The notes: generated by a model from the letters alone, not told the origin. Shown: positions 4,039 through 56,391, counted from the first letter of the stretch. The stretch is 64,000 nt of DNA from an uncultured candidate division Zixibacteria bacterium (GCA_963735035.1 CAVTJJ010000003.1:672001-736000), one strand, 5' to 3'. Made by a program: numbers and translations.

Positions 4039-4040
4039 GC

Positions 4041-4671
4041 TCAGGACGCCTCGATCACTATACCCTGGACGATATTGGCGACTTCCTCACACCGGTCGGT
4101 GGCCTTCTCCAGCCTCTCGAACAACTCTTTCCATTTGATCAGTGTCACCGCCTCCCGCTCTTCCTTGAAGAGACGCGCCAGCGCCGCTCGAAGCACCTGG
4201 TCGCCTTCTTTTTCCGCGTCGTAAACCGCCTGGCAGCAACGCTCGATCTCATCGCCATTCTTGCTCAAGTGCTTCAGTTCGCCAATCGCACGTGAAAGAT
4301 GAACGGAGGCTCGCACCAGAACAGTTGTAAGCTGCTTGACTTCGGTGCGCATCGTGGTCATCTCGTAGAGCATCATGCGCGACGCCGATGGCATCGACCG
4401 AATCGATAATGTCATCGAGCCGGGTGATAAGCTTGTGAATATCGGAGCGGTCAATCGGCGTCACGAAGGTTCGGTGAAGGGCGTCGATGCAGCCGTGGGT
4501 TATCCGATCGGCTTCATGCTCGATAGCCTTGATTCGGCTGGCTCGCTCGTATAGCTTGGACGGGTCGGCGCAAATCGCATCCAATTCGGCGCAGGCCTCG
4601 CACGTCAGCTTGGCATGATCCTCGAAATACTTGAAGAAGTTGGTTGTTTGGGGAAGAAGTCGCTTGAACAT
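4041..4671 (-). CDS. DUF47 (PhoU-like) phosphate transport regulator, apparent +1 frameshift near 4386
   Basis: N-half MFKRLLPQ...IEHEADRITH...TFVTPIDRSDI joins C-half ...EKEGD...LEKATDRCEEVANIVQGIVIE if one G is removed from ATCGGCGTCG; lies directly upstream of pit. Confidence 0.85.
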
Positions 4672-4996
4672 TTCCGCGCTCCGATTAGGGCCACACCGCA
4701 CGCCGAATAAGTTGTCAAATCCGGGCTACCACACCGCTATCTCGCCCAAGCGTAACACATGACGGGGCATAGGTCAACGGCATTTTCTACAATTGCTCGG
4801 CGGCGCACGTCCCCGCCCCGCTCCCGCAAGTCGCTGTCGTACGGAATGTTGCGCCACACGCGTCAGTTCGCATGATCGACCTTACCGGCAGAATTAGTTG
4901 CGTAAGGGCTTTGTTCAAGTCTATATTTCGTTATCAGCTTTCTGGACGAAGTGGGTATCGAACAGCAATCGATACTTTGGGCGGCACACCAGCCAA

Positions 4997-24920: not shown

Positions 24921-24947
24921 CTCAATCATCCTCATTTCCGATTCCCG

Positions 24948-27900
24948 TTAGAAACTGACATCGACGTTCAAGCCGCGCTTGTTGCTGTACTCGACCGCTG
25001 CGTTCATACCGATACATCCCTTGGCGCCGGTCGGTAGCGCAAACACACAGGCGCCGAATATGCGGCAGTAGCATTTCCAGCAGATCGACCAGCAGCCCGC
25101 GTTGGGACATGAGCCGATCGTGCCTTCGAGACTGAAGCTGCCGTTCGCCCCGGCTGCGACTTCGTCATCGCGAACTGTCACGTTCGCCCCGAGAGCAAAC
25201 CGACCGCGCGCCTCGATCAGGTCGAGCGAGAATAGGCCGAGATCGAAGCCGATCCAGGCATAGGCGCTACCCGACATTTGGATCGACCCTGTCACCCCGT
25301 GGTTCCAGTCGATATCGAGTTTCGCGCGCTGCTCCAGATTCAGACCGAACTTGATGACATACCAGTTGGCGTTGTAACCAAACGAACTGCCCACTTCGAT
25401 ATAGATGCCGGTCATTAAACGGGTCTGGCCGTTGTATTGCCATTCCCAGTTGTTGGCGATGACGATTATGCCATCGGCCTTGATAATCTCAATTACGTTG
25501 AGATTGGCCCGGCCGTAGATGTACCAGTAGCGGCCGAACTGAACGCCCAGATCAAGCTGTGCCGATGCCTTCGCCGCCTTGAAGTCCATGGCGAAGACGA
25601 TCGAGCCGGTGACTCTCTCTTCCGGTATGTTGATTTCGAATGTGGCGCGACCGACATTCATGTCGCCGCCCACCTGGACGTTGGCATTGCCCAGGATGAT
25701 GACACCTTTGGGCGTCTTCTGGACTTCAACCAGGATGTCGAGCTTGATCCCCTTGTCCGCCTTGGCCGGCGCTACAATGCCACCGAGGCTGAACTTCCAC
25801 GTATCATCCTTGCGCCCGATGCCACCCGAGGCCTGGACAATTTCAGCCGGACCGATCGGGATTCTCGTGCCCGAGATGATCCGCACCCACCAGTCGGTCG
25901 AGCCACCATAGCGGAACTCCGCTCCAGCGCTGAAGACCGGCCTTACCGCCAACAGCCCCTTCCCCTCGAATACACCGTCGGCGTACGAAACGCGAATGTC
26001 CACACTGGCGGGACCCGCCACGAAACCGAGTGCTATCTCGCGGAACGTTACCGCTCCGTCGAAATAGAATCTTAGGTCGCTCGCCTGCACGTTCAGACCG
26101 TTGATGGCGCCGAACTTCACCCCGCCTGTCAAGCCGATAAACTGTTCCGTCCGGGACGAATCGTAACCGAGCTCAATTGACTCAAGTGTGAGGGTGACTA
26201 CATTCTTGAATGATACCGACTGATTGAACTCCAGCTTGCCGGTGAACCTGCCCTTTTCGGAGTAGCGAAGCTTCATCCCCACCGGCTTGTCGAGAGCGGT
26301 AACTGTGAGCTTGCCCGCGAAGGCGAAATACTTGGTGTGCTCGAGCGTCGTCGACTCGAAGTTCTCAGTGCCAAACTCGAGCGACTCGATCTGGAATTTC
26401 TGGCCGTGGACGTTAATCGTGCCGTTCTTTTCGTCGGCTGTGAGCGTCAGACTGAGGAACTCGCCCTCGGGAGAGATACGCAGATCCTTGAAACCGTACT
26501 CCCGGTTGTCCAGCGCGTTGAGCACGATTGCACCGCTCGCCCGGAACCCGGTCGCCTCCCAGCTCATCGAGCTGTCGACAACAGTAAAGACGCCGAATGG
26601 GATCTTGATCGCGGGCTCAGTCTTGAGGGTGACCGACTTAAGCGTGATCTCGCCGTCGGTGTCGCGACCGATCAGCATCTCCTCAAAACCAACCTTGAAC
26701 TTGGAGCCGAACTCGATTGATCCGAACAGATGCAGGCCGGCCGTATCAACACAACTCTTCGTGTAATCCAGGCCGAGCTTCACCGACTTGATCTGGACCT
26801 GGACTTCCTTGTTGGTCACCGTGATGCCGTACTTGCTCAGGCCACGGTTGACACCACCCGCCCAGAACGACGGCGCATACGACTTCGGAATCTTGAAATC
26901 TATGAACTTCGTCTCGGGAAGGATCTTCGAGATCGGGTCTTTGATCGTCACATCACCGCAGATGCGCCCGGCCTTGACCGAATCCACCCATTCCAGTCGC
27001 AGACCGCCGTCGAACGACATGGAGCCTTCGACCCCAAAGATGTTGATATCAACGGAGGACGTTGTCAGCTTGACCGTATCCGACACCGGACGATAATTTG
27101 ACCCCACTTCCAGGGCGGCGAAATTGAGCGACGTGCCCGGATTCTTCAGTTGGACGCCAAATGTGGCCGGAACATCGATCAGCGCTCCCCAGGCTTTGTT
27201 CTTTCCGTCCGATCCCGCTTGTATCGAATCGAGTGCCACTGCGAAACCGAAGAGCGAATCCATCGGCGACGGTTCCATTTCGATCGCCAGCCCGGTGACC
27301 TTCGCCCCCGCTTCGATACGCTTATCGTGTTTGAGTCGCGCCGTCTTAAACCCGGCTTTACGTGCTATCAGAGTGACCGACTCGCCGGTCGGGACGTTGC
27401 GAAGTTTGAAGACACCATTCAGATCGGTGGTCGCGGTTACTTTATCGTTGCCTTCAATCGTAATCGCTACTTTTTCAATCGGGAGGCCGCCCTCCTTCGC
27501 CTTGACCGTTCCCTCGATCCGCGCCGCCGGCGCCAACTCCACAATCACCGGCGCAGCGTTCAATCCCGGGTAAACGGTCACCTGGGACTCGACCGCCTCA
27601 TAGTCCTGAGCGTAGCTGTCATCCGACGGAGGCATCACCTTGAGCTTTTGCTGCCCGGTCGGAGCCTCGTCAAAATAGGCCACGCCGTCCGCATCGGTGG
27701 TAACCGGGACCGTGTCACCCAGTGTGACCTTCATGTCCTTCAGCCGCTTATCCGCGCTGCCCTTCTCTACGACCCGCACGAACACCTGCCCGATACTTCG
27801 AGCAATGGTCACGGATACCTTCAGCGTATCATTGGCGGTAACTACGACCGTCGTGTCGAGATCGGCGTAACCCAATTTGCGCAACTGCAGATGCACGCTG

Positions 27901-30647
27901 TCGGCAATCGCATCCGAGATCTGCAGCAAGCCATCTTTATTGGTGAAGCCGATAAGCGACGGTATCTCCGGCGATTTGACGCAAACGTCGCTGACACCCT
28001 TCTTATCCTTGTTCGTAACATTCAGCGAGATGAATCCCTTGGCGGCGCTGAGTTCCTCGTCGCGCTGGAACCGGTCACCGTAGTTGACGGCGAACTCCCC
28101 AGTGATTAGAGTAGCGCATCCGGTCTTGGAGAACTTAATGCGATAGACACCGGGCATGAGATTCGCGAAACTGTAGGCGCCGTCGCCCCCCGATTCCATC
28201 CATCCCGCACTGAGATTCCAGGCGGTCCGTCCGTCCGGAAGGGAGTCGATGCGATTCAACTGAACCCGCACACCGCTGAGCTGAGTGCCGGCGGAACTGG
28301 TTACGCGTCCAAAGATAATACCGCCTACCCGGGTCAGTCCGAAATTGACCGTATCAACTTCGTTCTCGGCGTCGATCCGATCCCCCTTTGTAGCCGAGCC
28401 GTAACCCTGGGCCTCGACCCAGACCAAATATCGCTCGGTTACTTGTTCGGGATCATTGATCGGAACATTCGCCAGAGCATAGTTGCCGGTCTGATCGGTC
28501 TGATACATATCGAGCGGCTCGCCGGCCGGCTTCTGATTGGCGGTATTACCCCAGGTCGTATCGACTACCGGAGCCGATCCTCCGCCCGCCGATTCACCCT
28601 CGCCGGAACCGAGCGAGCTCTTCGAATTGCCGGAGCCTCCACCGGACCCCTGATTGCCACTCCGCTGCCGTCGCGTGGCCGGATAGAGATAAACGCTCGC
28701 CCCCTCGACCGGCAGACTGTCGCACAACACACGGCCTACTATACTCCCCGCCTTCGGCTGCAGTAGATGCTCACCCGTATCAGTGGTCTCTCCCGCCGCG
28801 AGCGTAATCGACTCGGGTGACGTATACGGTCTGTAGCGAGCGTCGTTTACAACAATCTTATAGGAATAGCTGAGCGGCGCGGAAGTTGTTACCAGCATCG
28901 GGAGTCTGGCGTTCCCCACATTCATGTACTGGACTTTTACAGTTGCCGCTTTTTCCTGGCTGATCCCCAGAAGGCGGAAGAGTCCACCTCCGTCAGTGTA
29001 CGCGGTCTGTTGGCAGTCGACCGTGATCTCCTGTTGGACCGATCCAACGGTTGCACCCCATAGCTTGGTGGTGATCTGAACCGTTGCGGTGCGCGACAAC
29101 TGCACCAGCGCCCGAGGCACCGGCTTGTAGGTTCCCGCCACGATCGACTTGACCACACCGGTGATAACGCCGGCATTTGGCTTGATCAGGAAGATGTACT
29201 GGTCGATATCTCCCTGTTGGCGCTGATCCGGTCCGATGTCCACCGCCGGGAGATACGACGGCGATTTCTCGGCGCGCAGACTGAAATACGACGAATCCGC
29301 CGCCTGCAGGAATTCGAAACGACCCTCCGCGTCGGTTGTGGCAACCAGCACCTTGCGAGCGACCTCGACATATTGGAACTGGGCGCCGCCGGATGAATCC
29401 GACGTGCGCACTACGTCGACCGCATGGTAAGTCACCGGCGCGTTGGCTACCGGCTCATTACTGAAGAAATCTTTCAACACACCCGCGAGGCGACGGGTCC
29501 CCGGCGAAGCATAGGCAAGACGAACGGTCTTGTTTCTGACATCGCCGTCTTGATACTGCTCCCGCCCGCTCAGAAGCAGGGTGGTGTAATCCTTCCGGCT
29601 GATTTCGAGCGTGTAGAAGCTCTTGTTATAGGCGGAGTCGATTCGGAATGCCCCGGTCGGCCCGGTATAACAAACCGTTGAATCTTCGCCCGCCGTCCAG
29701 GTCGTATCTCCGGCGCTGATGCTTCGAGAGATAGGACGATACACCAGTCGTGCGGAATCCAGCGGGCGGCCGTTTTCGGCGTCAAGCACCTGTCCGGCCA
29801 GCGTGCGAAGTTCCACCGGTGTTGTTGTATCGGCGTCAAACCGGAATGACCAGATCTCACTGCGACCGTCATTGGTCGACGGCGGGTACCCCTTAGAATC
29901 CAATACCTGCACCTGCCAGGCGTACGTGCGATCCTTTACGAATGCCTGAGCATAAATCGGATACTGCAGGCTGGGGTTGCCAATATTCTTGTCTTCAAAT
30001 TGTGGCACATCGGCGGCCAGCGCCTGTGCGGCCGTCTGTCCGGGCAAGACCTCGGCCATCCGAAGATTGTAGTGCACTCCGAAACCTGCTGGAACTTGCA
30101 CCGGCGTCCACTGAAACACCGGAAACTTGCTTAGGACCGCCTCGCCATCGGTGGGATATACCAGATAGGGCGGATCGGGATAGACAATCGTGAATTCAGC
30201 ACACTTGTTGTCGGCCAGGATCGTTCCGTTCTCATCCTCGATCCGAAGACAAGCTTGATAGGTTCCTTCGGGCAGACGTCCCGTGCGAATTGCTATATCT
30301 TCAATGTCGTTGTTGTACTCAATCGAGGGGTCATCGATGATATCGCGGGTCGTGATATTGGACGACGGTCCCGGCGGAAAGTCGAGCATTTTGCTGTTGG
30401 CGCTGGCAATCTGCTGACTTCCTCGGCTGACTGTAAGGTATATGCGCACATGGACCGTATCAGCCAACGGGTTCACAATTAGGGCCTGACCAATACCGGC
30501 GTTGTTCTCCCAATCCGTGAGATATGGCGACGGGTAAGGATCGAATATGAGCGTGGCTTCCCAGCCCCCTTGGGCCAACGTGGAAGACGCTATAAGAAAT
30601 ATGAGCAGGCACAGAAAGAGTGCGCGCAACCTGCCAGCATTACTCAT
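24948..30647 (-). CDS. Giant secreted protein (1899 aa): TANFOR-like N-terminus, carboxypeptidase-regulatory/Cna-B-like repeats, long beta-rich C-terminal region
   Basis: Signal peptide; PYPSPYL...LPEGTYQAC...PPYLVYPTDG...FQWTP...YAWQVQV...GRSEIWSF; repeated GxV...GAxV...TDxxGxF; AGGAG RBS. Confidence 0.8.
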   Translation of the reverse strand: MSNAGRLRALFLCLLIFLIASSTLAQGGWEATLIFDPYPSPYLTDWENNAGIGQALIVNPLADTVHVRIYLTVSRGSQQIASANSKMLDFPPGPSSNITTRDIIDDPSIEYNNDIEDIAIRTGRLPEGTYQACLRIEDENGTILADNKCAEFTIVYPDPPYLVYPTDGEAVLSKFPVFQWTPVQVPAGFGVHYNLRMAEVLPGQTAAQALAADVPQFEDKNIGNPSLQYPIYAQAFVKDRTYAWQVQVLDSKGYPPSTNDGRSEIWSFRFDADTTTPVELRTLAGQVLDAENGRPLDSARLVYRPISRSISAGDTTWTAGEDSTVCYTGPTGAFRIDSAYNKSFYTLEISRKDYTTLLLSGREQYQDGDVRNKTVRLAYASPGTRRLAGVLKDFFSNEPVANAPVTYHAVDVVRTSDSSGGAQFQYVEVARKVLVATTDAEGRFEFLQAADSSYFSLRAEKSPSYLPAVDIGPDQRQQGDIDQYIFLIKPNAGVITGVVKSIVAGTYKPVPRALVQLSRTATVQITTKLWGATVGSVQQEITVDCQQTAYTDGGGLFRLLGISQEKAATVKVQYMNVGNARLPMLVTTSAPLSYSYKIVVNDARYRPYTSPESITLAAGETTDTGEHLLQPKAGSIVGRVLCDSLPVEGASVYLYPATRRQRSGNQGSGGGSGNSKSSLGSGEGESAGGGSAPVVDTTWGNTANQKPAGEPLDMYQTDQTGNYALANVPINDPEQVTERYLVWVEAQGYGSATKGDRIDAENEVDTVNFGLTRVGGIIFGRVTSSAGTQLSGVRVQLNRIDSLPDGRTAWNLSAGWMESGGDGAYSFANLMPGVYRIKFSKTGCATLITGEFAVNYGDRFQRDEELSAAKGFISLNVTNKDKKGVSDVCVKSPEIPSLIGFTNKDGLLQISDAIADSVHLQLRKLGYADLDTTVVVTANDTLKVSVTIARSIGQVFVRVVEKGSADKRLKDMKVTLGDTVPVTTDADGVAYFDEAPTGQQKLKVMPPSDDSYAQDYEAVESQVTVYPGLNAAPVIVELAPAARIEGTVKAKEGGLPIEKVAITIEGNDKVTATTDLNGVFKLRNVPTGESVTLIARKAGFKTARLKHDKRIEAGAKVTGLAIEMEPSPMDSLFGFAVALDSIQAGSDGKNKAWGALIDVPATFGVQLKNPGTSLNFAALEVGSNYRPVSDTVKLTTSSVDINIFGVEGSMSFDGGLRLEWVDSVKAGRICGDVTIKDPISKILPETKFIDFKIPKSYAPSFWAGGVNRGLSKYGITVTNKEVQVQIKSVKLGLDYTKSCVDTAGLHLFGSIEFGSKFKVGFEEMLIGRDTDGEITLKSVTLKTEPAIKIPFGVFTVVDSSMSWEATGFRASGAIVLNALDNREYGFKDLRISPEGEFLSLTLTADEKNGTINVHGQKFQIESLEFGTENFESTTLEHTKYFAFAGKLTVTALDKPVGMKLRYSEKGRFTGKLEFNQSVSFKNVVTLTLESIELGYDSSRTEQFIGLTGGVKFGAINGLNVQASDLRFYFDGAVTFREIALGFVAGPASVDIRVSYADGVFEGKGLLAVRPVFSAGAEFRYGGSTDWWVRIISGTRIPIGPAEIVQASGGIGRKDDTWKFSLGGIVAPAKADKGIKLDILVEVQKTPKGVIILGNANVQVGGDMNVGRATFEINIPEERVTGSIVFAMDFKAAKASAQLDLGVQFGRYWYIYGRANLNVIEIIKADGIIVIANNWEWQYNGQTRLMTGIYIEVGSSFGYNANWYVIKFGLNLEQRAKLDIDWNHGVTGSIQMSGSAYAWIGFDLGLFSLDLIEARGRFALGANVTVRDDEVAAGANGSFSLEGTIGSCPNAGCWSICWKCYCRIFGACVFALPTGAKGCIGMNAAVEYSNKRGLNVDVSF

Positions 30648-32998: not shown

Positions 32999-33024
32999 AC
33001 CGAGGTCCCCCCTCGGACCTCGGT
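32999..33024. terminator. Hairpin downstream of the hydrogenase operon (terminator or REP)
   Basis: ACCGAGGTCC-CCCCTC-GGACCTCGGT perfect 10-bp stem. Confidence 0.5.
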
Positions 33025-33087: not shown

Positions 33088-33396
33088 CTACTGTTTGATG
33101 CCCGGTCGGTAGGCGAACTCGGATGCTGCCATCGACGCCGGTACCGGGTAGAAGCCCGCCCCCGAGCAGAGCGGACAGGGATTGCGATCGACCTGTCTGA
33201 CTTCGATCAGGCCGGTCCCGTGGCAGGCGTAGCACGGGTTTTCAAGGGCGTCGAACCCTTTCCCGTCACAGTACATGCACTTGTGCGAATGGTCCGGTGT
33301 GATACACCGATTATCTACCCAGCCCCGGCCGCGGCACTCCGGGCAGACTTTTGGTTCGCCCTCGGGCGACGGCTTCTTTCTGGTCTCTGTCCCCAT
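33088..33396 (-). CDS. Stand-alone DnaJ-type zinc-finger protein
   Basis: Four CxxCxGxG repeats (CPECRGRG, CMYCDGKG, CYACHGTG, CPLCSGAG); GAGGTG RBS. Confidence 0.8.
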   Translation of the reverse strand: MGTETRKKPSPEGEPKVCPECRGRGWVDNRCITPDHSHKCMYCDGKGFDALENPCYACHGTGLIEVRQVDRNPCPLCSGAGFYPVPASMAASEFAYRPGIKQ

Positions 33397-33871
33397 ACTT
33401 CACCTCGCACGTTCTATTGCGAATCCATTCTTCGACTAAAGTAATCGCCGGCTCCACAGCCGCCGTAACGGCCGGGGTCATCTCTTCCGACAGCGTCTGC
33501 ACATCGGCCGCTTCCACGGCCAGGACGTCTATATTCTCCGGCATCTCATAACCAAGAAGCCTTCCAAGCCGGAGCGCCGTCGGCAGACTTATCTCGTGAC
33601 TTGATACCAACCCTCGACCGGGGGTCCAATATCCGTTCGGGAAGAAATGCAGTGTCCCTGGAATCGCTTTGCTCGTCAGCACTGTATCCACTACCAGCAC
33701 GGCCTCACGGCTGTGCATCAGATCCAGCAATGCGAACCCCGCCACCGAGGCGGTACAGACATCGGCGCGTTCGGTCACTTCCGGCCGAGTCAGACTCTCC
33801 CCCACCCGCAGACCAAAAGCGTCGTCGGTCAGCACATCATTTCCCAGACACAGGATCAGAATCGGTTTCAA
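33311..33871 (-). CDS. [NiFe]-hydrogenase maturation protease (HyaD/HycI family)
   Basis: LCLGNDVLTDDAFG, VLVVD and SSHEI motifs; TTG start overlaps the large-subunit stop; C-terminal tail overlaps the next gene. Confidence 0.9.
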   Translation of the reverse strand: MKPILILCLGNDVLTDDAFGLRVGESLTRPEVTERADVCTASVAGFALLDLMHSREAVLVVDTVLTSKAIPGTLHFFPNGYWTPGRGLVSSHEISLPTALRLGRLLGYEMPENIDVLAVEAADVQTLSEEMTPAVTAAVEPAITLVEEWIRNRTCEVKYGDRDQKEAVARGRTKSLPGVPRPGLGR

Positions 33872-35353
33872 CCGTCTCTCCGTTTCGAGTCAATAATTTC
33901 GCCGGTCGCAGCGTCGTGCACAATCAGCTCCAGCGGCATCTCGCCCGGCAGCGAATGCGTGGCGCATCCGAAACAGGGATCGTACGCCCTAAACGCCATC
34001 TCAATCCGGTTGAGAATGCCTTCGGTGAGCGTCGTACCCTTCTTGATCAAGCCTTCCGCGGCCCGTTTGATTGACATAGTAATCGGGGCATTGTTGTTCG
34101 TGGTACCGACGATCAGGTTGGCTTCGGTGATGATCCCTCGGTTGTCGGTCTTATAATGATGCGTCAGCGTTCCCCGAGGCGCTTCGACAATGCCAACCCC
34201 TTCGCCCACAATGCCTGTCGGCGGCTCGAAGATCTTGTCGGATGTGATTTCTTCATCCTGGGCCTGTTGCAGCACTGCCTCGCAGGCAAACACCAGCTCA
34301 ACTACCCTCGCCCAGTGCGTGGCCAGAGTAGCGTTGACCGGCGTTCTGCCGGTACGATCCCCGGTCAGCGTCTCATAGAACCGTTCGTACTCAGCTTGAG
34401 CCAGCGGCGTAGCCATACCGTCCGAGACGTTGAGCCGACTCAGCGGAGTCGCCTTGTAGACGCCTGAATCCTTGCCGTCGATAAATCCCTTCCACCCGAC
34501 CTTCTTCAGGAACGGATATTTCAGATAGCTATATGGCTCGACATGCTCGGCGACATATTCGAGATAATCTTTCGGCGCATATTTGGCGTGTTCGGTGCCG
34601 TCGGGCGCGGTCACCCGCACCATACCATCATAGAAAGTCACCTTGTTGTTGGCGTCCACCAGCCCCATGTTGTACGTCTTGTGGCAGAACAGGTCACCTA
34701 CTATCAGATTGACATAATGCTTTGTTCGCAAGAACCACGTCGTTGAGCACCTGAATCGTAAACTTGGCGAACTCAACCATATCCCGGCCGATCTTGATCA
34801 TCTCCTGCTGTTCTTCCTTGGTGACCCGTTTGGACATGCCTCCCGGAAGCGCCGTCACCGGATGTACTTTCTTGCCGCCGATGATCTCGATAATTCTCTG
34901 ACCGCGCGCTCTTTGAGCAATGACCTTCTTGCCGGCGTCGATGCCCACCTTGGCGATTACGCCAAGGATATTGCGCTCAAGCGGGGGCGCATCAGGACCG
35001 CAAACGAAATCCGGTCCGCCCAGAGCATAGAAATGGGTGGTATGATCGCCCGCATAGAATCCGTTATAGACCAGTTCGCGTAGCTTGCGCGCCGCCGATG
35101 GAATCGTCACTCCGTAAACCGCATCGGCCGCTTTCGCCGCCGCCATGTGGTGGGCATCGGGACAAACCCCACAAATGCGGGTCGTAATGCGACACATCTC
35201 CTCAACCGGCCGCCCAACACAGAACTTCTCGAACCCGCGCAGTTCCGGCACTTGGAAATAGCAGTTGGCCAGCGAGCCGTCGTCGTTGATGAATAGGTGT
35301 ATCTTGCCGTGGCCCTCGAGCCGGGTGATCGGATCAATCAGGACCGTTCTCAT
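33868..35353 (-). CDS. mvhA: Group 3c-like [NiFe]-hydrogenase large subunit, apparent +1 frameshift near 34715-34723
   Basis: IDPITRLEGH, L1 motif RICGVC, EAPRGTLTHHY, L2 motif RAYDPCFGCATH plus cleavable tail; halves join as VLANK-(H/A)YVNLI. Confidence 0.9.
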
Positions 35354-36321
35354 ACTTGTACTCTCCTGATCATTGATGCCGGAAGACTGAAACGATAGAA
35401 CGTGCCGACCGGATCGGCGATGGTCCCGATGATCTCGTCGATCTCCTCCGGATCGGTGGAATCAATCACGCTGGCCAGCGCCGAAACCATCTTCGCCCCC
35501 TGATCGCGGACGTTCACCGGAAGGCCATAGCAGCCCCGGCAGGGCACCCCGGCCGTTGAACATTTCGCACCGCAGCCTGCCCGAGTCGCCGGTCCCATGC
35601 AGACAATACCCTGTTCCAGCAGACATAGATTGGCGTCGATCCTGATCTCATGCGGCCGGTAGAATTTCTTGATCTTCTTGATATTCTTTTCGCGCAGACA
35701 TTCATCGCAACAAGTCTTGTCGGTCGCCCCGAGAATCGTCCCTTTCGGGGGCAGCGGTTTGCCGTTTTTCAGGATATCGATCACCGCTTCGACCACTGCC
35801 GCAATCTGATTCGACTGGGGCGGACAGCCGGGAATGATATAATCGACCTCGACCACCTGCGGCAGCGTCCGCACCGTATTCCACAAGTATGGGATGTGAA
35901 GCTCACCCTCGGGGACTTTGACAGTCGGTTGCGGTACTACTACGCTCCCCTTTTCCAAAGAGGGCGACTTCTTGTAGACATAATCCATAATCGCGTCTTT
36001 AGTCACCAGATTGGCCATCCCGGGAATACACCCCTCCGAGGCGCAACTGCCGAACGCACACAGCACCACCGACTTGGCCCGCATGAGCTTGGCCATCTCG
36101 TAGTTTTCGTCGCTGCGAATGGCCCCGTTGAACAAAGTCAGCGTGATTGACTTATCGTCCATCCGACGGATATCGTCATACTTCGTATCCATCGCACATG
36201 GCCAGAAGATCGGGTCGAAGAAATCCGCCACGGCCAGAATCTTCTCCTCGATATCCAGAATTGCGATATCACAACCGCCGCACGACGATGCCCAATAGAT
36301 TGCCAGTTTCGGTTTAGCCAT
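35350..36321 (-). CDS. mvhG: [NiFe]-hydrogenase small subunit
   Basis: WASSCGGC, AFGSCA, PGCPP, CCDEC, CLLEQGIVCMGPATRAGCGAKC, PCRGCYG; GGAG RBS before the ATG at 36321. Confidence 0.92.
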   Translation of the reverse strand: MAKPKLAIYWASSCGGCDIAILDIEEKILAVADFFDPIFWPCAMDTKYDDIRRMDDKSITLTLFNGAIRSDENYEMAKLMRAKSVVLCAFGSCASEGCIPGMANLVTKDAIMDYVYKKSPSLEKGSVVVPQPTVKVPEGELHIPYLWNTVRTLPQVVEVDYIIPGCPPQSNQIAAVVEAVIDILKNGKPLPPKGTILGATDKTCCDECLREKNIKKIKKFYRPHEIRIDANLCLLEQGIVCMGPATRAGCGAKCSTAGVPCRGCYGLPVNVRDQGAKMVSALASVIDSTDPEEIDEIIGTIADPVGTFYRFSLPASMIRRVQV

Positions 36322-36326
36322 GTTTG

Positions 36327-36809
36327 TCACTCCCTGCTCACAACCAAATCGTGGCTCGCGACTGAGGCGTGGCGCGTGTCCGCCTCGCCCGGCTCGAACG
36401 TCCAATCCTTCAGGTGAAGCGGCCCCAGTTCGCGAATCTGTTCGGTAAATTCGCCGATCACTTCCTGGAACCGCACTCCTTCGGACGCCGAGACCCATTC
36501 GAGGCGAAGCCGCCGCTTATCGACCCCCATCGCTTCTAGTAACTTGAGAGTCAGCGGCACGCGACGCATGCACTTGTAGTTGCCCTCGACATAATGGCAG
36601 TCGCCCGGATGACACCCGCAGATCAGGACCCCGTCGGCCCCTTTCTGGAACGCATCCAGCACGAATCCGGGATCGACCCGACCGCTGCACATCACCCGAA
36701 GGCTCAGGATATTGGGGGGATATTTAAGCCGCGCCGTGCCGGCGAGGTCGGCGCCAGTATAACTGCACCAATTGCAGAGGAAACCTATGATCTTGGGTTC
36801 GAAGCTCAT
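36327..36809 (-). CDS. mvhD: [2Fe-2S] adaptor subunit (MvhD/FlpD)
   Basis: GFLCNWCSYTGADLAG, RVMCSGRVD, GCHPGDCHY and WVSASEG motifs. Confidence 0.95.
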   Translation of the reverse strand: MSFEPKIIGFLCNWCSYTGADLAGTARLKYPPNILSLRVMCSGRVDPGFVLDAFQKGADGVLICGCHPGDCHYVEGNYKCMRRVPLTLKLLEAMGVDKRRLRLEWVSASEGVRFQEVIGEFTEQIRELGPLHLKDWTFEPGEADTRHASVASHDLVVSRE

Positions 36810-38564
36810 ACCAACATCCCCTCTATTTGGGCGTAAATTTGTTCGTCGGTGAAATGTCTCGCGACAATCGCACCGGCCGGGCAGGCGGCCACACAGGTGC
36901 CACAGGCTTTGCACAACGCCGAATTCACGACGCTGACTTTCTTATCGGTCAGGTAATCAATCGCATTGTACGGACACAGTTCATTGCATACGCGACAACC
37001 ACCGCAATATTCTTCCTGAATTGCCGCATATGCGGCATCCATCATTATTTCGCGCTGACAAAGTAACTTGAGCGCATGTGAGGCTGCCGCCCCTCCCTGA
37101 GCTACTGTATCCGGAATATCCTTAGCGCCCTGACAGGCTCCGGCCAGGAATACGCCATCGGTGGTTGTCGAAACCGGCCCAAGTTTCGGATGTGCCTCTA
37201 TAAACCAGCCGTCGGCGCCAACTGAAATGTTGAACTTCCTCGCCGTCTCCTTGGCGTCCTTGCGTGCTTCCAGTGCCGTGCAGAGGATCACCATGTCGAC
37301 CGGAATCTCGCGGAACTTGCCTATCAGCGTGTCCTCGCACATGACCAGCAAGTGGCCTTCCTCGCCCCGACGGAACCCCGACGGCACCACTTCGGCTGCT
37401 TTGCCGCGGATAAGATTCACATCTTCATCGAGAATGCGCTGATAGAACTCTTCGTACCCCTTGCCGAAACTGCGCACGTCGATATAGAGTTGGTAGACTT
37501 CCGCCGAGGTCTTTTCCTTCACCAGATGCGAGAACTTGAAAGCGTACATGCAGCAGACCCGACTGCAGTACTTGTGATAGTTTTGATCGCGGCTGCCGAT
37601 GCAGTGCAGAATGGCAATCGCCCGCGGCTCCTCGCCGTTTTCCAGCACGATCTTGCCCCCGGTCGGACCGGCGGCGTTGTTCATCATTTCGAATTCTTCG
37701 GCCGAGATGACATTCGGATACTTGCCGTAGCCGTACTGCTTCATCGGTGTGGGGTCAAAGCTGTCAAAGCCGGTGGCCATGACAACGACGCCAACATCGA
37801 ATTCCTCGAACTGATCCTGATCGTCGTAGTGAATACAGTCTTTCGGGCAGACTTTCGAGCAAACCTTGCACTCACCCGTATTGAAGTGTATGCACTTGTC
37901 CGGATCGATGAACGGGACGTTCGGCACGGCTTGGCGAAACGGCAGCGAAATCGCCGAGTTCGGCCCGAGCGATATCTCGCTGTGTACAATTGAACGCCCG
38001 TGAATTTCTTCCATCTTGATATGCCCGGTCGGACATACACTGGCGCAGGCGCCGCACAAGATACAGTCGTCGCTGCCAGCCTCCGAACGGCGTGGCGACT
38101 TCCCGATAAATGCCCCGGTTACTGAAAGCGAGCGCATGCGCGCCGACGACTTCGTCGCATACCCGCACGCACAGACCGCACAGAATACACGTGTCCTCAC
38201 CCGTGCCCCAGCGCGGCTTGTCGATTCCGAATTGCTCCGCCAACTGCTGCAACACCGGAACCGGCGCGCAGCGACTCATGAGCATTTCGAGATTGACCCG
38301 GCGAGCGTTTATCACACGCGGCGTCGAAGTGTGTATTTCCAGACCGTCCCAGACCGGATAGTTACAGGCCGTGACAATCTTGCTCCAACCTCGGCCGTCG
38401 CGCGCCTCGACCGCACAGATACGGCAGGCGGCGTACGGGGTCATATACGGATAGTGGCAGAGAGTCGGGATGTACGCTCCGAGCGCGCGGGCGCCGTCGA
38501 GAACAAACGCTCCTTCTTCCATCTCCACCGAATGTCCGTCGATCTTTACATTCACTTTGGCCAT
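36806..38564 (-). CDS. Fusion of a NuoG/HoxU/HydA-N-like Fe-S domain to the C-terminal half of HdrA, apparent +1 frameshift near 38083
   Basis: IPTLCH...CRIC...TAC [2Fe-2S]; CILCGLCVRVC; (shift TPF-EAGSDD) CILCGACASVCP; then HdrA sequence AISLPFRQAVP, VMATGF, CIGSRD...CSRVCCMYAFK, GVFLAGACQGAKDIPD and a C-terminal 2[4Fe-4S] domain. Confidence 0.85.
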
Positions 38565-40585
38565 CAAATCCTCCTACGCCACCGTGGCCGCTTCGCGCCT
38601 GACCGATGTCTCCCAGACCTGAACTGCTTTAGTCTTGAATGCCCGTCGCCTTCACCTCGTTTGACGCGCACGATGGCGTCGTGCTTGCAGATCTGGTAGC
38701 AGGCACCGCACTGGATGCATTTGTCCTGGATGATACTGTGCAGCTCTTTCGGCTTGCCTACAATTGCCTTAGTCGGGCACGGCTTCAAACATGCCACACA
38801 GCCGGTGCATTTCTCGGTAATGGCGTGCGACACTAATTCTTTGCAGACTCCGGCCGGACACCGCTTATCACGAATATGCGCCATGTACTCCTGTCGGAAA
38901 TACTTGACCGTCGACAGAATCGGGTTCGGCGCACTACCGCCCAACTGACAGAGACTGGTATCCACCAGTACCTGTCCTAGTTCTTCCAGCAGTGACAGAT
39001 CTTCGACCGTCCCTCGACCATCGCAGATCCGGGTCAGCACTTCCAGCATGGTCCGGATGCCTTCCCTGCAGGGCAGACACTTCCCGCAGCTTTCTTCCTG
39101 CAGGAAAGTGAGGAAATACCTGGCGACATCGACCATACATGAATCTTCGTCCATCACAATCATGCCGCCCGAACCCATCATCGAACCGACTTTGGTGAGC
39201 TCGTCGAAATCTACCGGCAGATCAAGCAGGCTAACCACTTCCTGATCATCGCGGATATCGCCGTGCGCCACCAGGCTGTCGTGAATCTTCTTCTCACCGG
39301 TTTCGACTATCAGCGTCCCCCCCGACGGCCCACCGGTTTGCACCGCCTTGAATCTCTTGGTGCCTCTCACACCGCCACCGATATCATATAGGATTTCGCG
39401 AAGTGTGATGCCCATTGGCACCTCGACCAGACCGGTGTTGTTGACCTTGCCGGTCAGGGCGAAGACCTTGGTTCCCTTTGAGCCCTCGGTTCCGATCCTG
39501 GCATAGGCTTTGGCCCCCATCTCGATGATGATTGGGACATTGGCCCAGGTCTCTACGTTATTCAGGTTGCTCGGCTTGTCCCACAAGCCGGATTCGACTG
39601 TGTGAATATACTTGGCGCGGGGTTCGCCGGTTTTCCCTTCGAGCGAGGCCATCAGCGCGGTCGATTCTCCGCACACAAACGCCCCGCCGCCACGCGAAAC
39701 CTCGATGTCGAAATCGAATCCCGTCCCGAGTATGTTCTTCCCCAGAAGGCCGCATTCACGGGCCGCGTCGATTGCGATCATCAGATTCTTGACCGCGAGA
39801 GGATACTCGTTGCGCACATAGACGAACCCCTCATTGCTGCCTATGGCATACGCACCGATAATCATCCCCTCGATAACAGAATGCGGATTGCCTTCGAGCA
39901 GGGAGCGATCCATGAACGCGCCGGGATCGCCTTCGTCCGCGTTGCAGATGACATATTTCGGCGTTCCTTTCGCCTTTCGACAGGTCGCCCATTTCTTGCC
40001 CGTGGGATATCCTCCACCCCCTCGACCACGCAGACCGGAGGTAGCTACTTCCTGAATGATCTCCTCAGGCTTCATCTTGAGCGCCTTAACCATGGGTCCG
40101 TATCCGCCCAGAGCGATGTAGTCACCTATCGAAGTCGGATCCATGTGACCGTTCTTCCCGAAAATCAAGCGCATCTGCTTTTTGTAGAACGGTATATCTG
40201 CTTCGTGAATGATCGTCTCTTTGGTAAGCGGATCGCTATAGAGCAGGCGGTTGACTATCTGCCCCGCTTTGATCGTCTGGTTGACTATCAGCTTGGCATC
40301 GGACGCTTTCACCCGCTGATAGAAGATGCCCTGCGGATGAACCACCACCAGCGGACCCCGCTCACAGAAACCGTGACACCCGGTTCGTTTTAGTTCGACT
40401 TCTTTATCCAGGTGACCCGCCACGAGTGCCTCGTGAAGGGCATTGCTTACCTTCTCGCAACCGCACGCCAAACATCCGGTCCCCGAGCAAACTGAAATAG
40501 TTGTTCTCTCTTCCTTACGGTGCTTGACGAGACTGGCTCGAAATTCTTCGAGCCCCGCAGCCGAGGTGATCCGTGTCATGTTCAT
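38564..40585 (-). CDS. NuoF/HoxF/HydB-like FMN/NADH diaphorase subunit with N-terminal [2Fe-2S] and C-terminal 2[4Fe-4S] domains
   Basis: CSGTGC...[62 protein letters not shown]...CIQCGAC. Confidence 0.93.
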
Positions 40586-41100
40586 GATTCCTCCTCACCC
40601 TCTGCAGCACCGGTCGCTTTGCCCTTCAACCCATCAAGCATGCGGTCGACTTTCGACACCGTCATGTTGCCGTAATAGACTTCATCAGCCGTCACCAGCG
40701 GCCCCAGGGCGCAGGCCCCGAGACAGTTCACCGTCTCCAGGCTGAATTCCCGGTCGTCGGTAGTCAGGCCGGGTTTGATGCCCAGCGACGTCTCCAGCCT
40801 GTCCACAATGACCGACGCCTGGCGAACGTGACAGGCCGTCCCGGTACAGACACAGATGTGATGCTTCCCCTTAGGGGTCAGACTGAATGAGCGATAGAAC
40901 GTGGCCACACCAAATACCTGGGCCACCGGCAGCTCCATCTTCCTGGCCACCAACTTGAGGGCTTCAATCGGCAGGTAGCGATAATGCTTTTGCACATCCT
41001 GAAGGATCATGATGAGGGCGGTTTGTTTCGCCTCATACTTGTTGACGATACTATCGATCGCTTCGGCCAGATCGTAGTGGCTCTGCACGGCCGTTGTCAC
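40582..41100 (-). CDS. NuoE/HoxE/HydC-like [2Fe-2S] subunit
   Basis: [16 protein letters not shown] and [10 protein letters not shown] motifs; GTG start behind a GGAGG RBS. Confidence 0.93.
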
Positions 41101-42071
41101 TTCGAGCCTCCTTCCACCGGCACCGACAGCGGCTCCGGCATCGGCTGCGCGCCGGTCAGCAGGGTCAAATCGTGGTCGGGACCCAGGACACCACGATGAC
41201 TCATGTCGAGCGCCTTCCCTTCTCTGACCACCTGCTTACCGAGAAACAATCTTCGCTCGCGGGGATACGGCTTGCTGGGACACGCCTCGTAACATGAGCC
41301 GCAACTGTTGCACAGGGTCGGATCGACATAGCGCGCCTTCTTACGAACCTTCACTTTGAAGTTGCCTATGTATCCCTTGACTTCCTCGACTTCCGCATAA
41401 GTCATCAATTTGATATGCGGATGCTTCCCCACCGATACCATCTTGGGAGTCAGAATACAGGCGGCGCAATCAAGCGTGGGAAAGGTCTTGTCGAATTGTG
41501 ACATGTGGCCGCCGATCGACGGCTCTCTCTCGACCAGCACCACTTCAAAACCGGCGTCGGCAATTTGCAGGGCCGCTTCGATTCCGGCGATACCGCCCCC
41601 GACAATCAATACCCGCTGGAAGATCGGTACCCGGCGCATTTCGAGCGCTTCGTGGAACTTCACCCGCGCCACCGCGCCGCGCAGCAGAGCGAGCGCTTTG
41701 GTGGTCGCCATCCGAGGATCGACTGTTACCCAACTTACCTGCTCGCGAATATTGGTCATCTCAAAGAAATACCGGTTCAGGCCGCCGTCCTCGACCGCTT
41801 TACGGAAAGTCGCTTCGTGCATGAGCGGACTGCACGCCGCCACCACTACCCGATCGAGTTTCAGTTCTCTGATATCCTTCTGAATGAGTTCCTGTCCGGG
41901 GTCCGAACACATGAATCGATAGTGACGCGCGATCACCACTCCCGGCGCTTCGGCTATGGTCTCTGCAACTTTGACCACATCAACCGTCTTGGCGATATTC
42001 GTCCCGCAGTGACAGATATACACTCCCACCCGGGGGGTACCATTGCCGGACGCATGTTCAAGCGAGCTCAT
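41097..42071 (-). CDS. hdrA: N-terminal half of heterodisulfide reductase subunit A
   Basis: VGVYICHCGTNIA, FMCSDPGQ, AACSP, GGGIAG FAD motif, DKTFPTLDCAACILTPKM; ends after CNSCGSCYEACP plus a ~60-aa tail. Confidence 0.92.
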   Translation of the reverse strand: MSSLEHASGNGTPRVGVYICHCGTNIAKTVDVVKVAETIAEAPGVVIARHYRFMCSDPGQELIQKDIRELKLDRVVVAACSPLMHEATFRKAVEDGGLNRYFFEMTNIREQVSWVTVDPRMATTKALALLRGAVARVKFHEALEMRRVPIFQRVLIVGGGIAGIEAALQIADAGFEVVLVEREPSIGGHMSQFDKTFPTLDCAACILTPKMVSVGKHPHIKLMTYAEVEEVKGYIGNFKVKVRKKARYVDPTLCNSCGSCYEACPSKPYPRERRLFLGKQVVREGKALDMSHRGVLGPDHDLTLLTGAQPMPEPLSVPVEGGSK

Positions 42072-42952
42072 ACCGCCACCCCTTCCGCCAGCGCCCGAAG
42101 TTTGACCGGATCTACCAGCAACTTATCCAGCCCCATCTCGTGCGATGAAATCCCCAGCGCCGCCCCTACCAGATGACTGAAATAGACCACCGGAATCTTG
42201 AAATCGCGCCCAAACGTCTTGCTGATCTTGCCCTGATAGGCTTCGAGATTCATCTGACAGAGCGGACAGGCGGTGGCAATTATCTCGGCGTTGGTGTCGT
42301 TGGCCGCCTGAAGCAGCTTCATGTTCAGATCGAGCGCGACGTCTTCCTGGGTGGTCATCAACATACCACCGCAGCAGCGTACTTTACAGGGGTAAGGGAC
42401 CACCTCGGCTCCCAGCGCGGTCAGCAGTCGATCCATCGTAACCGGTTCGTCGACATCGTCGAAATGCCCGTGCGGCCGGACGATCTGGCAGCCGTAGTAG
42501 GTCGCCACCCTGATGCCCGCCAGACTGTGCTTCATCCTGGCCTTGATCGCCGGAAGCCCGAAATCGTTTACCAGGATATCAAGCGGGTGCCGGACATCGA
42601 CCAGCGTGTCATACTTAAGTCCCGCCGCCGCCAGGGCTTCGTTGATCTTGGCGCGTTCTTTCGGATCCCACGCGATGTGGCGATTGGTCTTCCGTAGAAT
42701 CGTGTAACAACTGCTGCAAGGGGCGCATATCTGCATGCCCATGTTCTGCGCCAGTGCCAGATTGCGGGCGCTTATCGCGTAGCCCACAATCTTCTTGACC
42801 GACATGTACATGGTCGCGCCGCAGCAGTTCCAGTCCTCGATTTCGTGCAGGGCGATCCCGAGCGTCTTGAAAATAGCCCGGATCGACTTGTCGTACGGAC
42901 TGGCGGTGTGTTCCAGGCTACAGCCTGGATAGTATGCATATTGGAGCATCAT
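42068..42952 (-). CDS. hdrB: Heterodisulfide reductase subunit B (CCG domains)
   Basis: YYPGCSL, WNCCGA, PCSSC, YYGCQ, RCCGG and ACPLCQMNL motifs. Confidence 0.95.
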   Translation of the reverse strand: MMLQYAYYPGCSLEHTASPYDKSIRAIFKTLGIALHEIEDWNCCGATMYMSVKKIVGYAISARNLALAQNMGMQICAPCSSCYTILRKTNRHIAWDPKERAKINEALAAAGLKYDTLVDVRHPLDILVNDFGLPAIKARMKHSLAGIRVATYYGCQIVRPHGHFDDVDEPVTMDRLLTALGAEVVPYPCKVRCCGGMLMTTQEDVALDLNMKLLQAANDTNAEIIATACPLCQMNLEAYQGKISKTFGRDFKIPVVYFSHLVGAALGISSHEMGLDKLLVDPVKLRALAEGVAV

Positions 42953-43536
42953 CCTTCTCCAAATTCATTGGCCTTATTGATGATGGCCCGTATGTCTTTT
43001 ATTCTTCTTAACTTTCTTGGAATCAAGCCCATCCGCCCCCGGCGAATCATCGACCACCCCATACCGGCGTTCGAAATAAGACGACTGATTTCGGTCCGCG
43101 CGAAATACCGGATGCCCAACCCCAACTCATAGTTGCGGCCGTACCTATAGACGTTATCCACAAAAGCTCCCGACAGTACGTGCACGAGGAAGCGGCCCGG
43201 ATACATCTTCTTCGCCATCGCAATCCGCTTCAGAGCGTACATGGTGTCAGTCACCCGGATGTCCGCGGGACAGCGGACCGTACATGAATAGCATGATGCG
43301 CAGAGCCAGATGGCTCGGCTTTGCAGTATCTCTTCAATATGGCCGGCCCGAAACATGGCCACGATCTGACGAGGGGTCAGGTCCATGGCATAGGACACCG
43401 GACAGGTCCCCGTACAGGTTCCGCACTGCAGACAGCGCTTAATCTTGAACCCCTCCGGAAAACTTCCGACCTGTTCCCAAAAGGCCGCCCGAAGCTCGGC
43501 CTCCTTTTTAGGGAGAAATTCGATCTTCCCTATCAT
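42949..43536 (-). CDS. hdrC: Heterodisulfide reductase subunit C (2x[4Fe-4S])
   Basis: CLQCGTCTGTCP and IWLCASCYSCTVRCP; AGGAG RBS. Confidence 0.93.
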   Translation of the reverse strand: MIGKIEFLPKKEAELRAAFWEQVGSFPEGFKIKRCLQCGTCTGTCPVSYAMDLTPRQIVAMFRAGHIEEILQSRAIWLCASCYSCTVRCPADIRVTDTMYALKRIAMAKKMYPGRFLVHVLSGAFVDNVYRYGRNYELGLGIRYFARTEISRLISNAGMGWSMIRRGRMGLIPRKLRRIKDIRAIINKANEFGEG

Positions 43537-55800: not shown

Positions 55801-56391
55801 TATCTGAAATGGACCGGTCAGTACGAACTGCTTGAAGCGATGGCCAAGCGCATGAAGATCGTAATTCCGATCACGCTGATTCTGGTCGTCATACTCCTGT
55901 ACCTGAACTTCCGCAACGTGACCGAAACCTTGATCGTGCTCGCCTCGGTACCGTTTGCTCTCGTGGGCAGTATCTGGCTGATGTACTTCCTGGGGTACAA
56001 CTACTCCACCGCGACCCTGGTGGGCATTATTGCACTGGTAGGATTGGCAACCCAGACCGGCATTGTAATGGTGCTATATCTCGATCACGCCTATGAACGG
56101 CGCAAGAAGGCCGGCAAGATTCGTGATCTCAACGATATTATCTGGGCGCACATGGAAGGTACTGTGATGCGCGTCCGACCCAAGCTCATGACGGTGACTA
56201 CTACGGCCGTCGGCCTGATACCGCTCCTTTGGGCTTCTGGAACGGGCGCAGACGTCATGAAGAGAATCGCGGCGCCGATGGTCGGCGGGCTGATTACGTC
56301 TACCTTCCTGACGCTTGAGATTATCCCGGTGGTCTACACTTACTGGCGACTCTGGCAAATTAGGCGGGAGAAGCTCCAATCCCAGCATTAG
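52889..56391 (+). CDS. cusA: CusA/SilA-type heavy-metal RND permease, apparent -1 frameshift near 54155
   Basis: DAIPDLSDTQV, GAMVDATIVLVENAHK, EFMPPLNEGDILYMP, DPAPLSMLET, WTMPIKTRIDML and RVRPKLMT motifs. Confidence 0.92.

Follow-up and report, generated by a model that had tools for sequence, protein, structure and literature searches.

Flavin-based electron bifurcation allows anaerobes to live near the thermodynamic limit. To our knowledge, before the 2026 preprint on class II benzoyl-CoA reductase, no enzyme had been shown to couple two bifurcation modules. In FlxABCD-HdrABC of Desulfovibrio, an NADH-binding module is encoded together with HdrA and MvhD, and a non-methanogenic disulfide has been proposed. 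Here, an operon of an uncultured candidate division Zixibacteria bacterium is described (GCA_963735035.1 CAVTJJ010000003.1:672001-736000; this whole 64,000-nucleotide stretch is referred to as the window, and positions are counted within it). In this operon, two different electron-bifurcating machines, an MvhAGD-HdrABC-type hydrogenase/heterodisulfide reductase and a Bfu-type module, are probably hard-wired into one enzyme.

Several described systems are close to parts of this operon. MvhAGD-HdrABC is known from hydrogenotrophic methanogens (PDB 5ODC and 8RVU; hydrogenase group 3c). Enzymes of the HdrA type are described as having their low-potential output at the inserted ferredoxin domain, while MvhD-type adaptors feed the input via the C-terminal ferredoxin domain (10.64898/2026.04.10.717634). 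The same preprint demonstrates experimentally the coupling of HydBC-type and HdrA-type modules in the class II benzoyl-CoA reductase Bam[(BC)2DEFGHI]2 of Geobacter metallireducens, the only characterised complex found to unite HydBC/Bfu-type and HdrA-type modules. According to that source, BamGHI, which is of the Bfu type, delivers electrons to the input side of BamE, which is of the HdrA type, by way of BamI, the MvhD-like BamF and the C-terminal ferredoxin domain; the tungsten active site is reached through the inserted ferredoxin domain, and the distal cluster of BamD is degenerate. Bam-Bfu is also listed as the Bfu enzyme containing an HdrA module by Schut et al. 2022 (PMC9304861), in the text of which an Hdr-Mvh-Bfu type was not found. 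NiFe-HydABCSL (7T2R) is classed there as Type 3, and Type-2 BfuA is characterised by clusters A1, A2 and A4 without A3 and A5 (PMC9304861, PMC12318220). Bacterial clusters in which genes for an NADH-binding module accompany those for HdrA and MvhD include nuoEFG-mvhD-hdrA of Desulfotignum phosphitoxidans, with a non-methanogenic disulfide proposed; the text on that unit mentions no split hdrA, fusion or Mvh hydrogenase (PMC4046663). For Zixibacteria RBG-1, a member of the same phylum, an MvhADG/HdrABC cluster has been reported and the lack of coenzyme M (CoM) and coenzyme B synthesis noted (Castelle et al. 2013, PMC3903129), and the description of that cluster is silent on any NuoEF-like insertion and on any splitting of hdrA. 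A literature search confined to the full texts of papers found no description of the split or fused design presented below.

The operon occupies the minus strand from 43536 to 33088 in the order hdrC-hdrB-hdrA(N)-nuoE-nuoF-nuoG(N)::hdrA(C)-mvhD-mvhG-mvhA-protease-zinc finger. Its 13 open reading frames (ORFs) carry the expected Pfam domains, and the gene content, order, strand and coordinates given in a preliminary description of this DNA are borne out by them. The nuoE-, nuoF- and nuoG-like genes are named bfuC, bfuB and bfuA below. The features are as follows:

42949..43536, minus strand: hdrC, 195 amino acids, two [4Fe-4S] motifs (Pfam Fer4_8/Fer4_17)
42068..42952, minus strand: hdrB, 294 amino acids, two CCG domains with both CCG motifs kept (Pfam CCG, two stretches, E 1.8e-28)
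41097..42071, minus strand: hdrA N-part, 324 amino acids, N-terminal cluster domain and first half of the FAD domain (Pfam Pyr_redox_2/FAD, one Fer4 motif)
40582..41100, minus strand: bfuC (nuoE/hydC-like), 172 amino acids, [2Fe-2S] (Pfam 2Fe-2S_thioredx, profile 1-144 of 145, E 1.9e-50)
38574..40585, minus strand: bfuB (long nuoF/hydB-like), with frame-corrected end; the uncorrected ORF runs to 38564 and encodes 673 amino acids
36806..38564, minus strand: bfuA N-domain::hdrA C-part, a fused gene with a frameshift within 38072-38084
36327..36809, minus strand: mvhD, about 160 amino acids, [2Fe-2S] adaptor (Pfam FlpD, profile 1-123 of 123, E 8e-54)
35350..36321, minus strand: mvhG, hydrogenase small subunit, 323 amino acids from MAKPKL, a start shared with related loci L001-L005 (Pfam Oxidored_q6)
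33868..35353, minus strand: mvhA, [NiFe] large subunit, with an extra base at 34716-34717 (Pfam NiFeSe_Hases)
33311..33871, minus strand: hycI-type maturation endopeptidase, 186 amino acids (Pfam HycI, E 2e-9)
33088..33396, minus strand: DnaJ-type CXXCXGXG zinc-finger protein, 102 amino acids (Pfam DnaJ_CXXCXGXG and Anti-TRAP)
32999..33024, minus strand: terminator-like hairpin 3' of the last gene, 10 pairs, 7 of them G-C, matching the consensus (scan hits not above shuffles overall)

The overlapping or near-abutting start and stop codons noted in the preliminary description were located as 4-base overlaps at six junctions (hdrC/hdrB, hdrB/hdrA-N, hdrA-N/nuoE, nuoE/nuoF, mvhG/mvhA and mvhA/hycI). 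In addition, the start of mvhD overlaps the stop of the fusion gene, and the zinc-finger gene and hycI overlap by 86 bases. A scan of the minus strand upstream of hdrC gave no convincing sigma-70-like promoter, with hits not above shuffles. The region is quite likely a single operon encoding a [NiFe]-hydrogenase/heterodisulfide reductase of the cytoplasmic MvhAGD-HdrABC type, with a Type-2 Bfu module placed in the hdrA gap.

HdrA is not encoded as a single polypeptide: bfuC and bfuB lie between its two parts, the second of which is fused to the N-domain of BfuA (BfuA-N). HdrA-N matches Methanothermococcus HdrA (5ODC chain A) over residues 4-268 and 8RVU chain a over residues 11-267. It ends with one Cys motif, the first, of the inserted ferredoxin domain, followed by a tail of about 55 amino acids without Cys. 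HdrA-C aligns to residues 244-650 of 5ODC chain A and contains the second motif of the inserted ferredoxin domain, the remaining FAD domain with E356/K409 and the C-terminal ferredoxin domain. By these alignments, HdrA-N and HdrA-C add up to a single HdrA that is split within the inserted ferredoxin domain. The preliminary description had assigned a Glu (EEFE) and a Lys (CCMYAFK) to the bifurcating FAD; the former aligns to E356 and the latter to K409 of 5ODC chain A (positions counted by hand), the two residues proposed in 2025 to separate bifurcating from non-bifurcating HdrA (PMC12054007).

The gap in hdrA is filled by genes of the Bfu family. BfuC carries the [2Fe-2S] thioredoxin-like domain by which this family is recognised. 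BfuB consists, according to Pfam, of an N-terminal 2Fe-2S_thioredx domain, Complex1_51K, SLBB, NADH_4Fe-4S and a C-terminal Fer4 pair, and features an N-terminal [2Fe-2S], an FMN/NAD site, a [4Fe-4S], the B2 site H-x5-C-x4-C and a C-terminal 2x[4Fe-4S], all of which are retained in alignments to 7T2R chain B and 9MQX chain B. The long HydB-type layout claimed earlier for the NuoF-like subunit is thereby confirmed, and all motifs quoted at that time, including H...CPAGVC, are present in the translations. The B2-site His is reported by Schut et al. (PMC9304861) as conserved in nearly all BfuB, and the H-x5-C-x4-C site as missing from non-bifurcating homologues. The best solved matches of BfuB are WorB of WorABCSL (9MQX, 768 bits) and then HydB of NiFe-HydABCSL (7T2R, 748 bits), followed by FeFe-HydB of three organisms and NfnB-type subunits at 583-720 bits. 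Altogether, the nine solved Bfu-family sequences compared (WorB, NiFe-HydB, FeFe-HydB of three organisms with one as two constructs, NfnB of two organisms and 8OH5 chain B) score 583-768 bits, versus no more than 374 bits for the non-bifurcating FdsB, Nqo1 and NuoF.

The BfuA N-domain (Pfam Fer2_4 and Fer4_Nqo3) has motifs for the [2Fe-2S] cluster A1 and the two [4Fe-4S] clusters A2/A4 and is devoid of the His-ligated A3; the stretch expected to hold the A3 ligands contains one Cys and no His. In the related locus L001, the orthologous domain aligns over its full length to residues 5-183 of WorA (9MQX chain A), which likewise lacks A3. By these features, the NuoEFG-like part is assigned to Type-2 Bfu modules, closest to the bifurcating WorABC and NiFe-HydABC. 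Unlike in WorABCSL and NiFe-HydABCSL, BfuA here has no C-terminal domain of its own and continues into HdrA, and the third substrate would be another bifurcating flavoprotein and not an aldehyde or H2 site.

BfuA is not a free-standing protein, as BfuA-N runs directly into HdrA-C, and the relatives have this fusion unbroken. The last Cys motif of BfuA-N, CILCGACASVCP, aligns with the last N-domain motif of WorA; no more than about 25 residues after it, homology to the middle of the HdrA inserted ferredoxin domain sets in, followed by the second Cys motif of that domain. The bfu genes are situated inside the coding region of the inserted ferredoxin domain. The four Cys motifs around the junction are enough for four [4Fe-4S] clusters (A2, A4 and two of the inserted domain), and either pairing of the motifs is predicted to put the distal cluster of BfuA beside the inserted ferredoxin domain. 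The insertion point, judged by the alignments, is the low-potential exit of HdrA and not its input. Since the NuoG-like N-domain is translationally fused to HdrA-C and the fusion is intact in relatives, a physical coupling of the Bfu and Hdr parts is implied, and we infer that the third-substrate port of the Bfu module, cluster A4, is tethered to the low-potential exit of HdrA. This differs from Bam, as the MvhD input here belongs to the hydrogenase, while the fusion joins the Bfu module to HdrA at the output, the inserted ferredoxin domain. The window HdrB also possesses both CCG motifs, in contrast to the degenerate distal cluster of BamD, and no tungsten/aldehyde-oxidoreductase-type domain was found by Pfam among the 13 ORFs of the operon.

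The remaining subunits are of the Mvh type. MvhA contains RICGVCPDAHH and DPCFGCATH, in accordance with the patterns of [NiFe] large subunits (N-terminal RxCGxCxxxH and C-terminal DPCxxCxxH). The intact MvhA orthologue of L001 finds MvhA of 5ODC (chain F, 386 bits) as its best PDB match, and then the large subunits of NiFe-HydABCSL (7T2R chain D, 359 bits) and of NAD-reducing hydrogenase (5XF9 chain D, 316 bits). The genes with Pfam FlpD (MvhD) and Oxidored_q6 (MvhG) adjoin hdrA-C in one operon. All six subunit types of the methanogen MvhAGD-HdrABC are therefore represented, with a two-part HdrA covering residues 4-650 of 5ODC chain A, E356/K409, an adjacent MvhD, a two-CCG HdrB and the MvhA match of the L001 orthologue; the differences are that HdrA is divided into two polypeptides, that a Bfu module has been placed within it and joined to it at the inserted ferredoxin domain, and that the host is a bacterium. 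The genome harbors a second, group-3b-like [NiFe] hydrogenase (G000:C4:731800-741600, L085), comprising a Fer4_22 subunit, an NAD_binding_1 subunit, small and large subunits and HycI. It adjoins hypF, hypC, hypD and hypE, and its large subunit reads as two ORFs.

To establish how widespread this layout is, 549 candidate stretches were surveyed, with one genome per species. A relative of HdrA-C is encoded by 529 of them, and the best 80 were kept as loci and sorted by local tblastn, counting only matches that cover at least half of each query. In 40 of the 80 loci, hdrA-N, bfuC, bfuB and the fusion occur together, and mvhD, mvhG and mvhA were also seen in 32 of these 40. Six further loci have bfuC, bfuB and the fusion with hdrA-N not seen, five have the fusion with the upstream part cut off or unclear, and two (L036, 2622-5317, and L048, 2304-4993) have split hdrA and the BfuA-N::HdrA-C fusion with no bfuC/bfuB between. 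Fusion-type loci thus make up 53 of the best 80 out of 529. An ordinary unsplit hdrA, at 49-57% identity, is found in 26 loci, with record labels such as Chloroflexota, Thermoguttaceae and others, and one locus is cut off. The zinc-finger gene accompanies 26 of the 53 fusion-type loci versus none of the 26 unsplit-hdrA loci. Beyond the phylum of the window, record labels also name KSB1, Calditrichaeota and others. Six loci (L016, L021, L027, L030, L034 and L047) have a more distant BfuB, at 55-57% identity, and in L021, L027, L034 and L047 hdrA-N lies about 4 kb upstream of bfuC. The gap of L021 (3821-6743) contains five small genes, including, by reading of the sequences alone, a PHP-like and a histidine-kinase-ATPase-like one, which resemble accessory genes of HydABC clusters.

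Within the phylum, a full-length match across the fusion junction with at least 61% identity is present in 47 of the 284 other genomes (a further match, in G211, has 43% identity). About 48 of the 285 phylum genomes, or roughly one in six at the species level, therefore carry the fused gene. Neither of the two genomes of the same genus (G096 and G097, 77% and 100% complete) has a full-length match across the junction, and several other genera of the family have one; this patchy distribution suggests loss or transfer. On the basis of these comparisons, the design can be regarded as a real, conserved and uncharacterised variant in which two known bifurcating systems are joined by gene splitting and fusion.

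BfuB has a 24-amino-acid insertion immediately after the GGPSGG motif (about residues 426-450; window 39236-39310, minus strand). It is kept in 42 of 48 BfuB copies of related loci and is missing from the six more distant Hdr-linked BfuB, from the two other Bfu-type paralogues of this genome (the complex-I-like copy left out) and from all solved Bfu structures. The insertion may serve as a docking surface. The two other Bfu-type modules are located at G000:C6:184000-190000 (L083) and G000:C2:6650-9163 (L084). One of them lies beside pyruvate:ferredoxin-oxidoreductase genes (Por-Bfu-like), and in the other, BfuB is fused to a GltD-like Fer4_20 and Pyr_redox_2 part (837 amino acids). A fourth NuoEF-like set at C6:145700-148100 probably belongs to complex I.

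The operon reading of the preliminary description holds for the layout and the quoted motifs; it overlooked three single-base insertions, at the 3' end of nuoF, in nuoG::hdrA and in mvhA. Near the 3' end of bfuB, an extra G at about 38641-38646 puts the last ~25 residues of the uncorrected ORF out of frame; the conserved C-terminus resumes in the other frame and ends with TAG at 38574-38576, and the BfuB C-termini of close relatives match this shifted frame. The fused gene reads as overlapping ORFs 37872-38567 and 36806-38200 in different frames, with the switch within 38072-38084, and mvhA as ORFs 34694-35353 and 33868-34776, with a one-base insertion at 34716-34717. In the relatives, the fusion is a single ORF of 585 amino acids (L001, L002, L003 and L005) and MvhA a single ORF of 493-494 amino acids (the same loci and L007). 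Programmed frameshifting was considered as a cause and is ruled out, because the orthologues of the relatives are read straight through at all three sites. The window operon has 78% DNA identity to L001, with protein identities of 83-94% (61% for the protease).

Frame breaks also occur elsewhere in the window. A CusA/AcrB-family RND pump gene at 52889-56391 (plus strand) is divided into two ORFs, the first matching the Pfam profile at 4-415 and the second up to 1018, with the switch near 54150-54180; its neighbours in a cusCBA-like row are OEP and HlyD genes and two-component regulators. A PhoU_div (DUF47) gene at ~3950-4701 (minus strand), beside a PHO4 phosphate transporter, is frameshifted as well, and the conserved sequence resumes in the other frame. 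The source assembly comprises 6 contigs and 3.6 Mb. Because the relatives are intact and at least two unrelated genes of the window are also broken, the three breaks in the operon are very probably assembly indels and do not reflect gene decay. Among public reads, one run contains 6% of the sampled words and represents relatives at 90-99% identity, not the window strain. At 34717, one contig from this run, belonging to a relative of ~94% identity, is one base shorter; there is no coverage of the site near 38080, and the site near 38645 is outside the stretch compared.

The disulfide that the complex could reduce was sought in the genome, which is 96.9% complete and has a single Hdr set. No match to ComA, of CoM synthesis, was found in it, which may speak against CoM-S-S-CoB as the disulfide reduced by HdrB. 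Among the carriers named in the preliminary description, TusA has no match in the genome and the lipoate type is represented by one GCV_H match far from the operon, while dsrC is present: a single DsrC with both C-terminal cysteines is encoded 109 kb from the end of the window among unrelated genes. No dsrA was found in the genome. DsrC scores above the cut-off in 185 of the 285 phylum genomes versus 33 of the 48 with the fused gene, including this one (hand counts, in which related genomes are not independent), and the closest intact-operon genomes, G035-G037 (97-100% complete), have only DsrC matches of E 4e-5 or weaker. DsrC as an obligatory disulfide substrate is rejected, given that it does not co-occur with the fused gene across the phylum, its gene stands among unrelated ones and no dsrA was found; it is a possible substrate of HdrBC, though not an obligatory one.

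The electron path may be pictured as follows. H2 would be oxidised at MvhA, and the electrons would pass via MvhG and MvhD to the FAD of HdrA, with Mvh and MvhD keeping their usual mid-potential input. There they would be bifurcated, the high-potential electrons going through HdrC and HdrB to a disulfide. The low-potential electrons would not be released to free ferredoxin and would instead flow via the inserted ferredoxin domain to BfuA and on to the BfuBC core, which would reduce NAD+ and ferredoxin in a second bifurcation in series. The H2-oxidising direction is favoured because every characterised group 3c hydrogenase is reported to work as an H2 oxidiser in the cell (PMC11216029). That H2, NAD(H), ferredoxin and a disulfide are coupled is a prediction, and the serial arrangement in particular, in which the low-potential output of HdrA becomes the input of the Bfu core, is offered tentatively. 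The preliminary description had proposed a hydrogenase-Hdr-NuoEFG-like complex with two candidate bifurcation sites, and all sequence-level tests performed agree with this. Taken as a whole, an H2-oxidising MvhAGD-HdrABC with a tethered Bfu module, whose frame breaks are most likely assembly errors, is considered somewhat more probable than all other explanations together.

Several points weigh against this interpretation. The wiring from cluster to cluster is deduced from the connectivity of the chains and not from coordinates, and feeding very low-potential electrons into an NAD+-reducing module looks wasteful unless a product of still lower potential is needed. BfuA-N can exist without local BfuBC, as L036 and L048 demonstrate. 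The operon appears to be accessory, because both genomes of the same genus are without the fused gene. DsrC is not enriched in the fused-gene genomes, and the weak matches in G035-G037 point the same way. Finally, should the three frameshifts prove to be real, this copy of the operon would be dead. It would then be a recent pseudogene cluster, with no complex made in this organism, and the three frame breaks within 10.4 kb, as well as the dispensability indicated by the absence of the fused gene from both same-genus genomes, speak for such decay. It is nevertheless unlikely: every break is a one-base insertion, the frames are fully open apart from these three single bases, the proteins are as similar to intact orthologues as stated above, and unrelated window genes and apparently the other hydrogenase carry frameshifts too.

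The same set of subunits could also run in the opposite direction, with BfuBC confurcating NADH and reduced ferredoxin and the electrons passing via the inserted ferredoxin domain to HdrA and then to MvhD, MvhG and MvhA for H2 formation, while HdrBC would add electrons from thiol oxidation or act as a regulatory branch. Such a fermentative, H2-evolving enzyme would accord with the reversibility of Bfu enzymes and with BamGH working as a confurcating input (10.64898/2026.04.10.717634), with the L001 MvhA orthologue being nearly as close to the large subunit of the reversible NiFe-HydABCSL as to MvhA, and with Zixibacteria RBG-1, in which other H2-evolving hydrogenases for ferredoxin re-oxidation are described as lacking (Castelle et al., PMC3903129). 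Both the direction and this role of HdrBC appear fairly unlikely, however, in view of the H2 oxidation reported for characterised group 3c enzymes (PMC11216029) and of the intact CCG motifs of HdrB, which argue for a real disulfide/thiol site. Moreover, thiol oxidation coupled to H2 evolution has no physiological role that we know of. If the NuoEFG-like module were a non-bifurcating NAD(P)H diaphorase, NAD(P)+ would replace free ferredoxin as the acceptor, or NADH would be an alternative donor, and a single bifurcation site would be left. The nuoEFG-mvhD-hdrA clusters of a sulfate reducer have been interpreted as NADH-linked (PMC4046663), and some HydABC enzymes are said in a review not to need ferredoxin; but BfuB has every bifurcation feature named by Schut et al. 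(the N-terminal [2Fe-2S], the B2-site His/Cys and the C-terminal ferredoxin-binding 2x[4Fe-4S]) and its nearest solved relatives all bifurcate, which makes a simple diaphorase improbable. Since genes that lie side by side do not always encode parts of the same complex, one might also suspect that an Mvh-Hdr complex and a Bfu enzyme are independent of each other and merely have adjacent genes. This is hardly credible, being already contradicted by the single BfuA-N/HdrA-C polypeptide of the relatives; the bfu genes, furthermore, lie within the coding region of hdrA, and start and stop codons overlap along the operon.

Downstream of the operon, at 22848-30647 (minus strand), a 1899-amino-acid protein with CarboxypepD_reg repeats is encoded beside a 695-amino-acid fibronectin type III protein. 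Their frames are intact, and they are probably large surface proteins.

The operon predicts a second, differently wired coupling of two bifurcation modules. With 53 of the best 80 loci and about one in six species-level genomes of the phylum, the design is common rather than exotic, and it could explain how H2, NADH and ferredoxin are used or balanced in uncultured sediment bacteria. It also sharpens the question of what bacterial HdrBC reduces, with DsrC not being an obligatory partner here. If the serial scheme is true, H2 at the low partial pressures of sediments would yield ferredoxin far below the H2 potential, at about -600 mV or lower by rough arithmetic, and the cost of this low-potential ferredoxin would be met by the reduction of a disulfide and NAD+. 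Bifurcation modules would then be stacked output to input, in a second way that is unlike the confurcation-then-bifurcation of class II benzoyl-CoA reductase.

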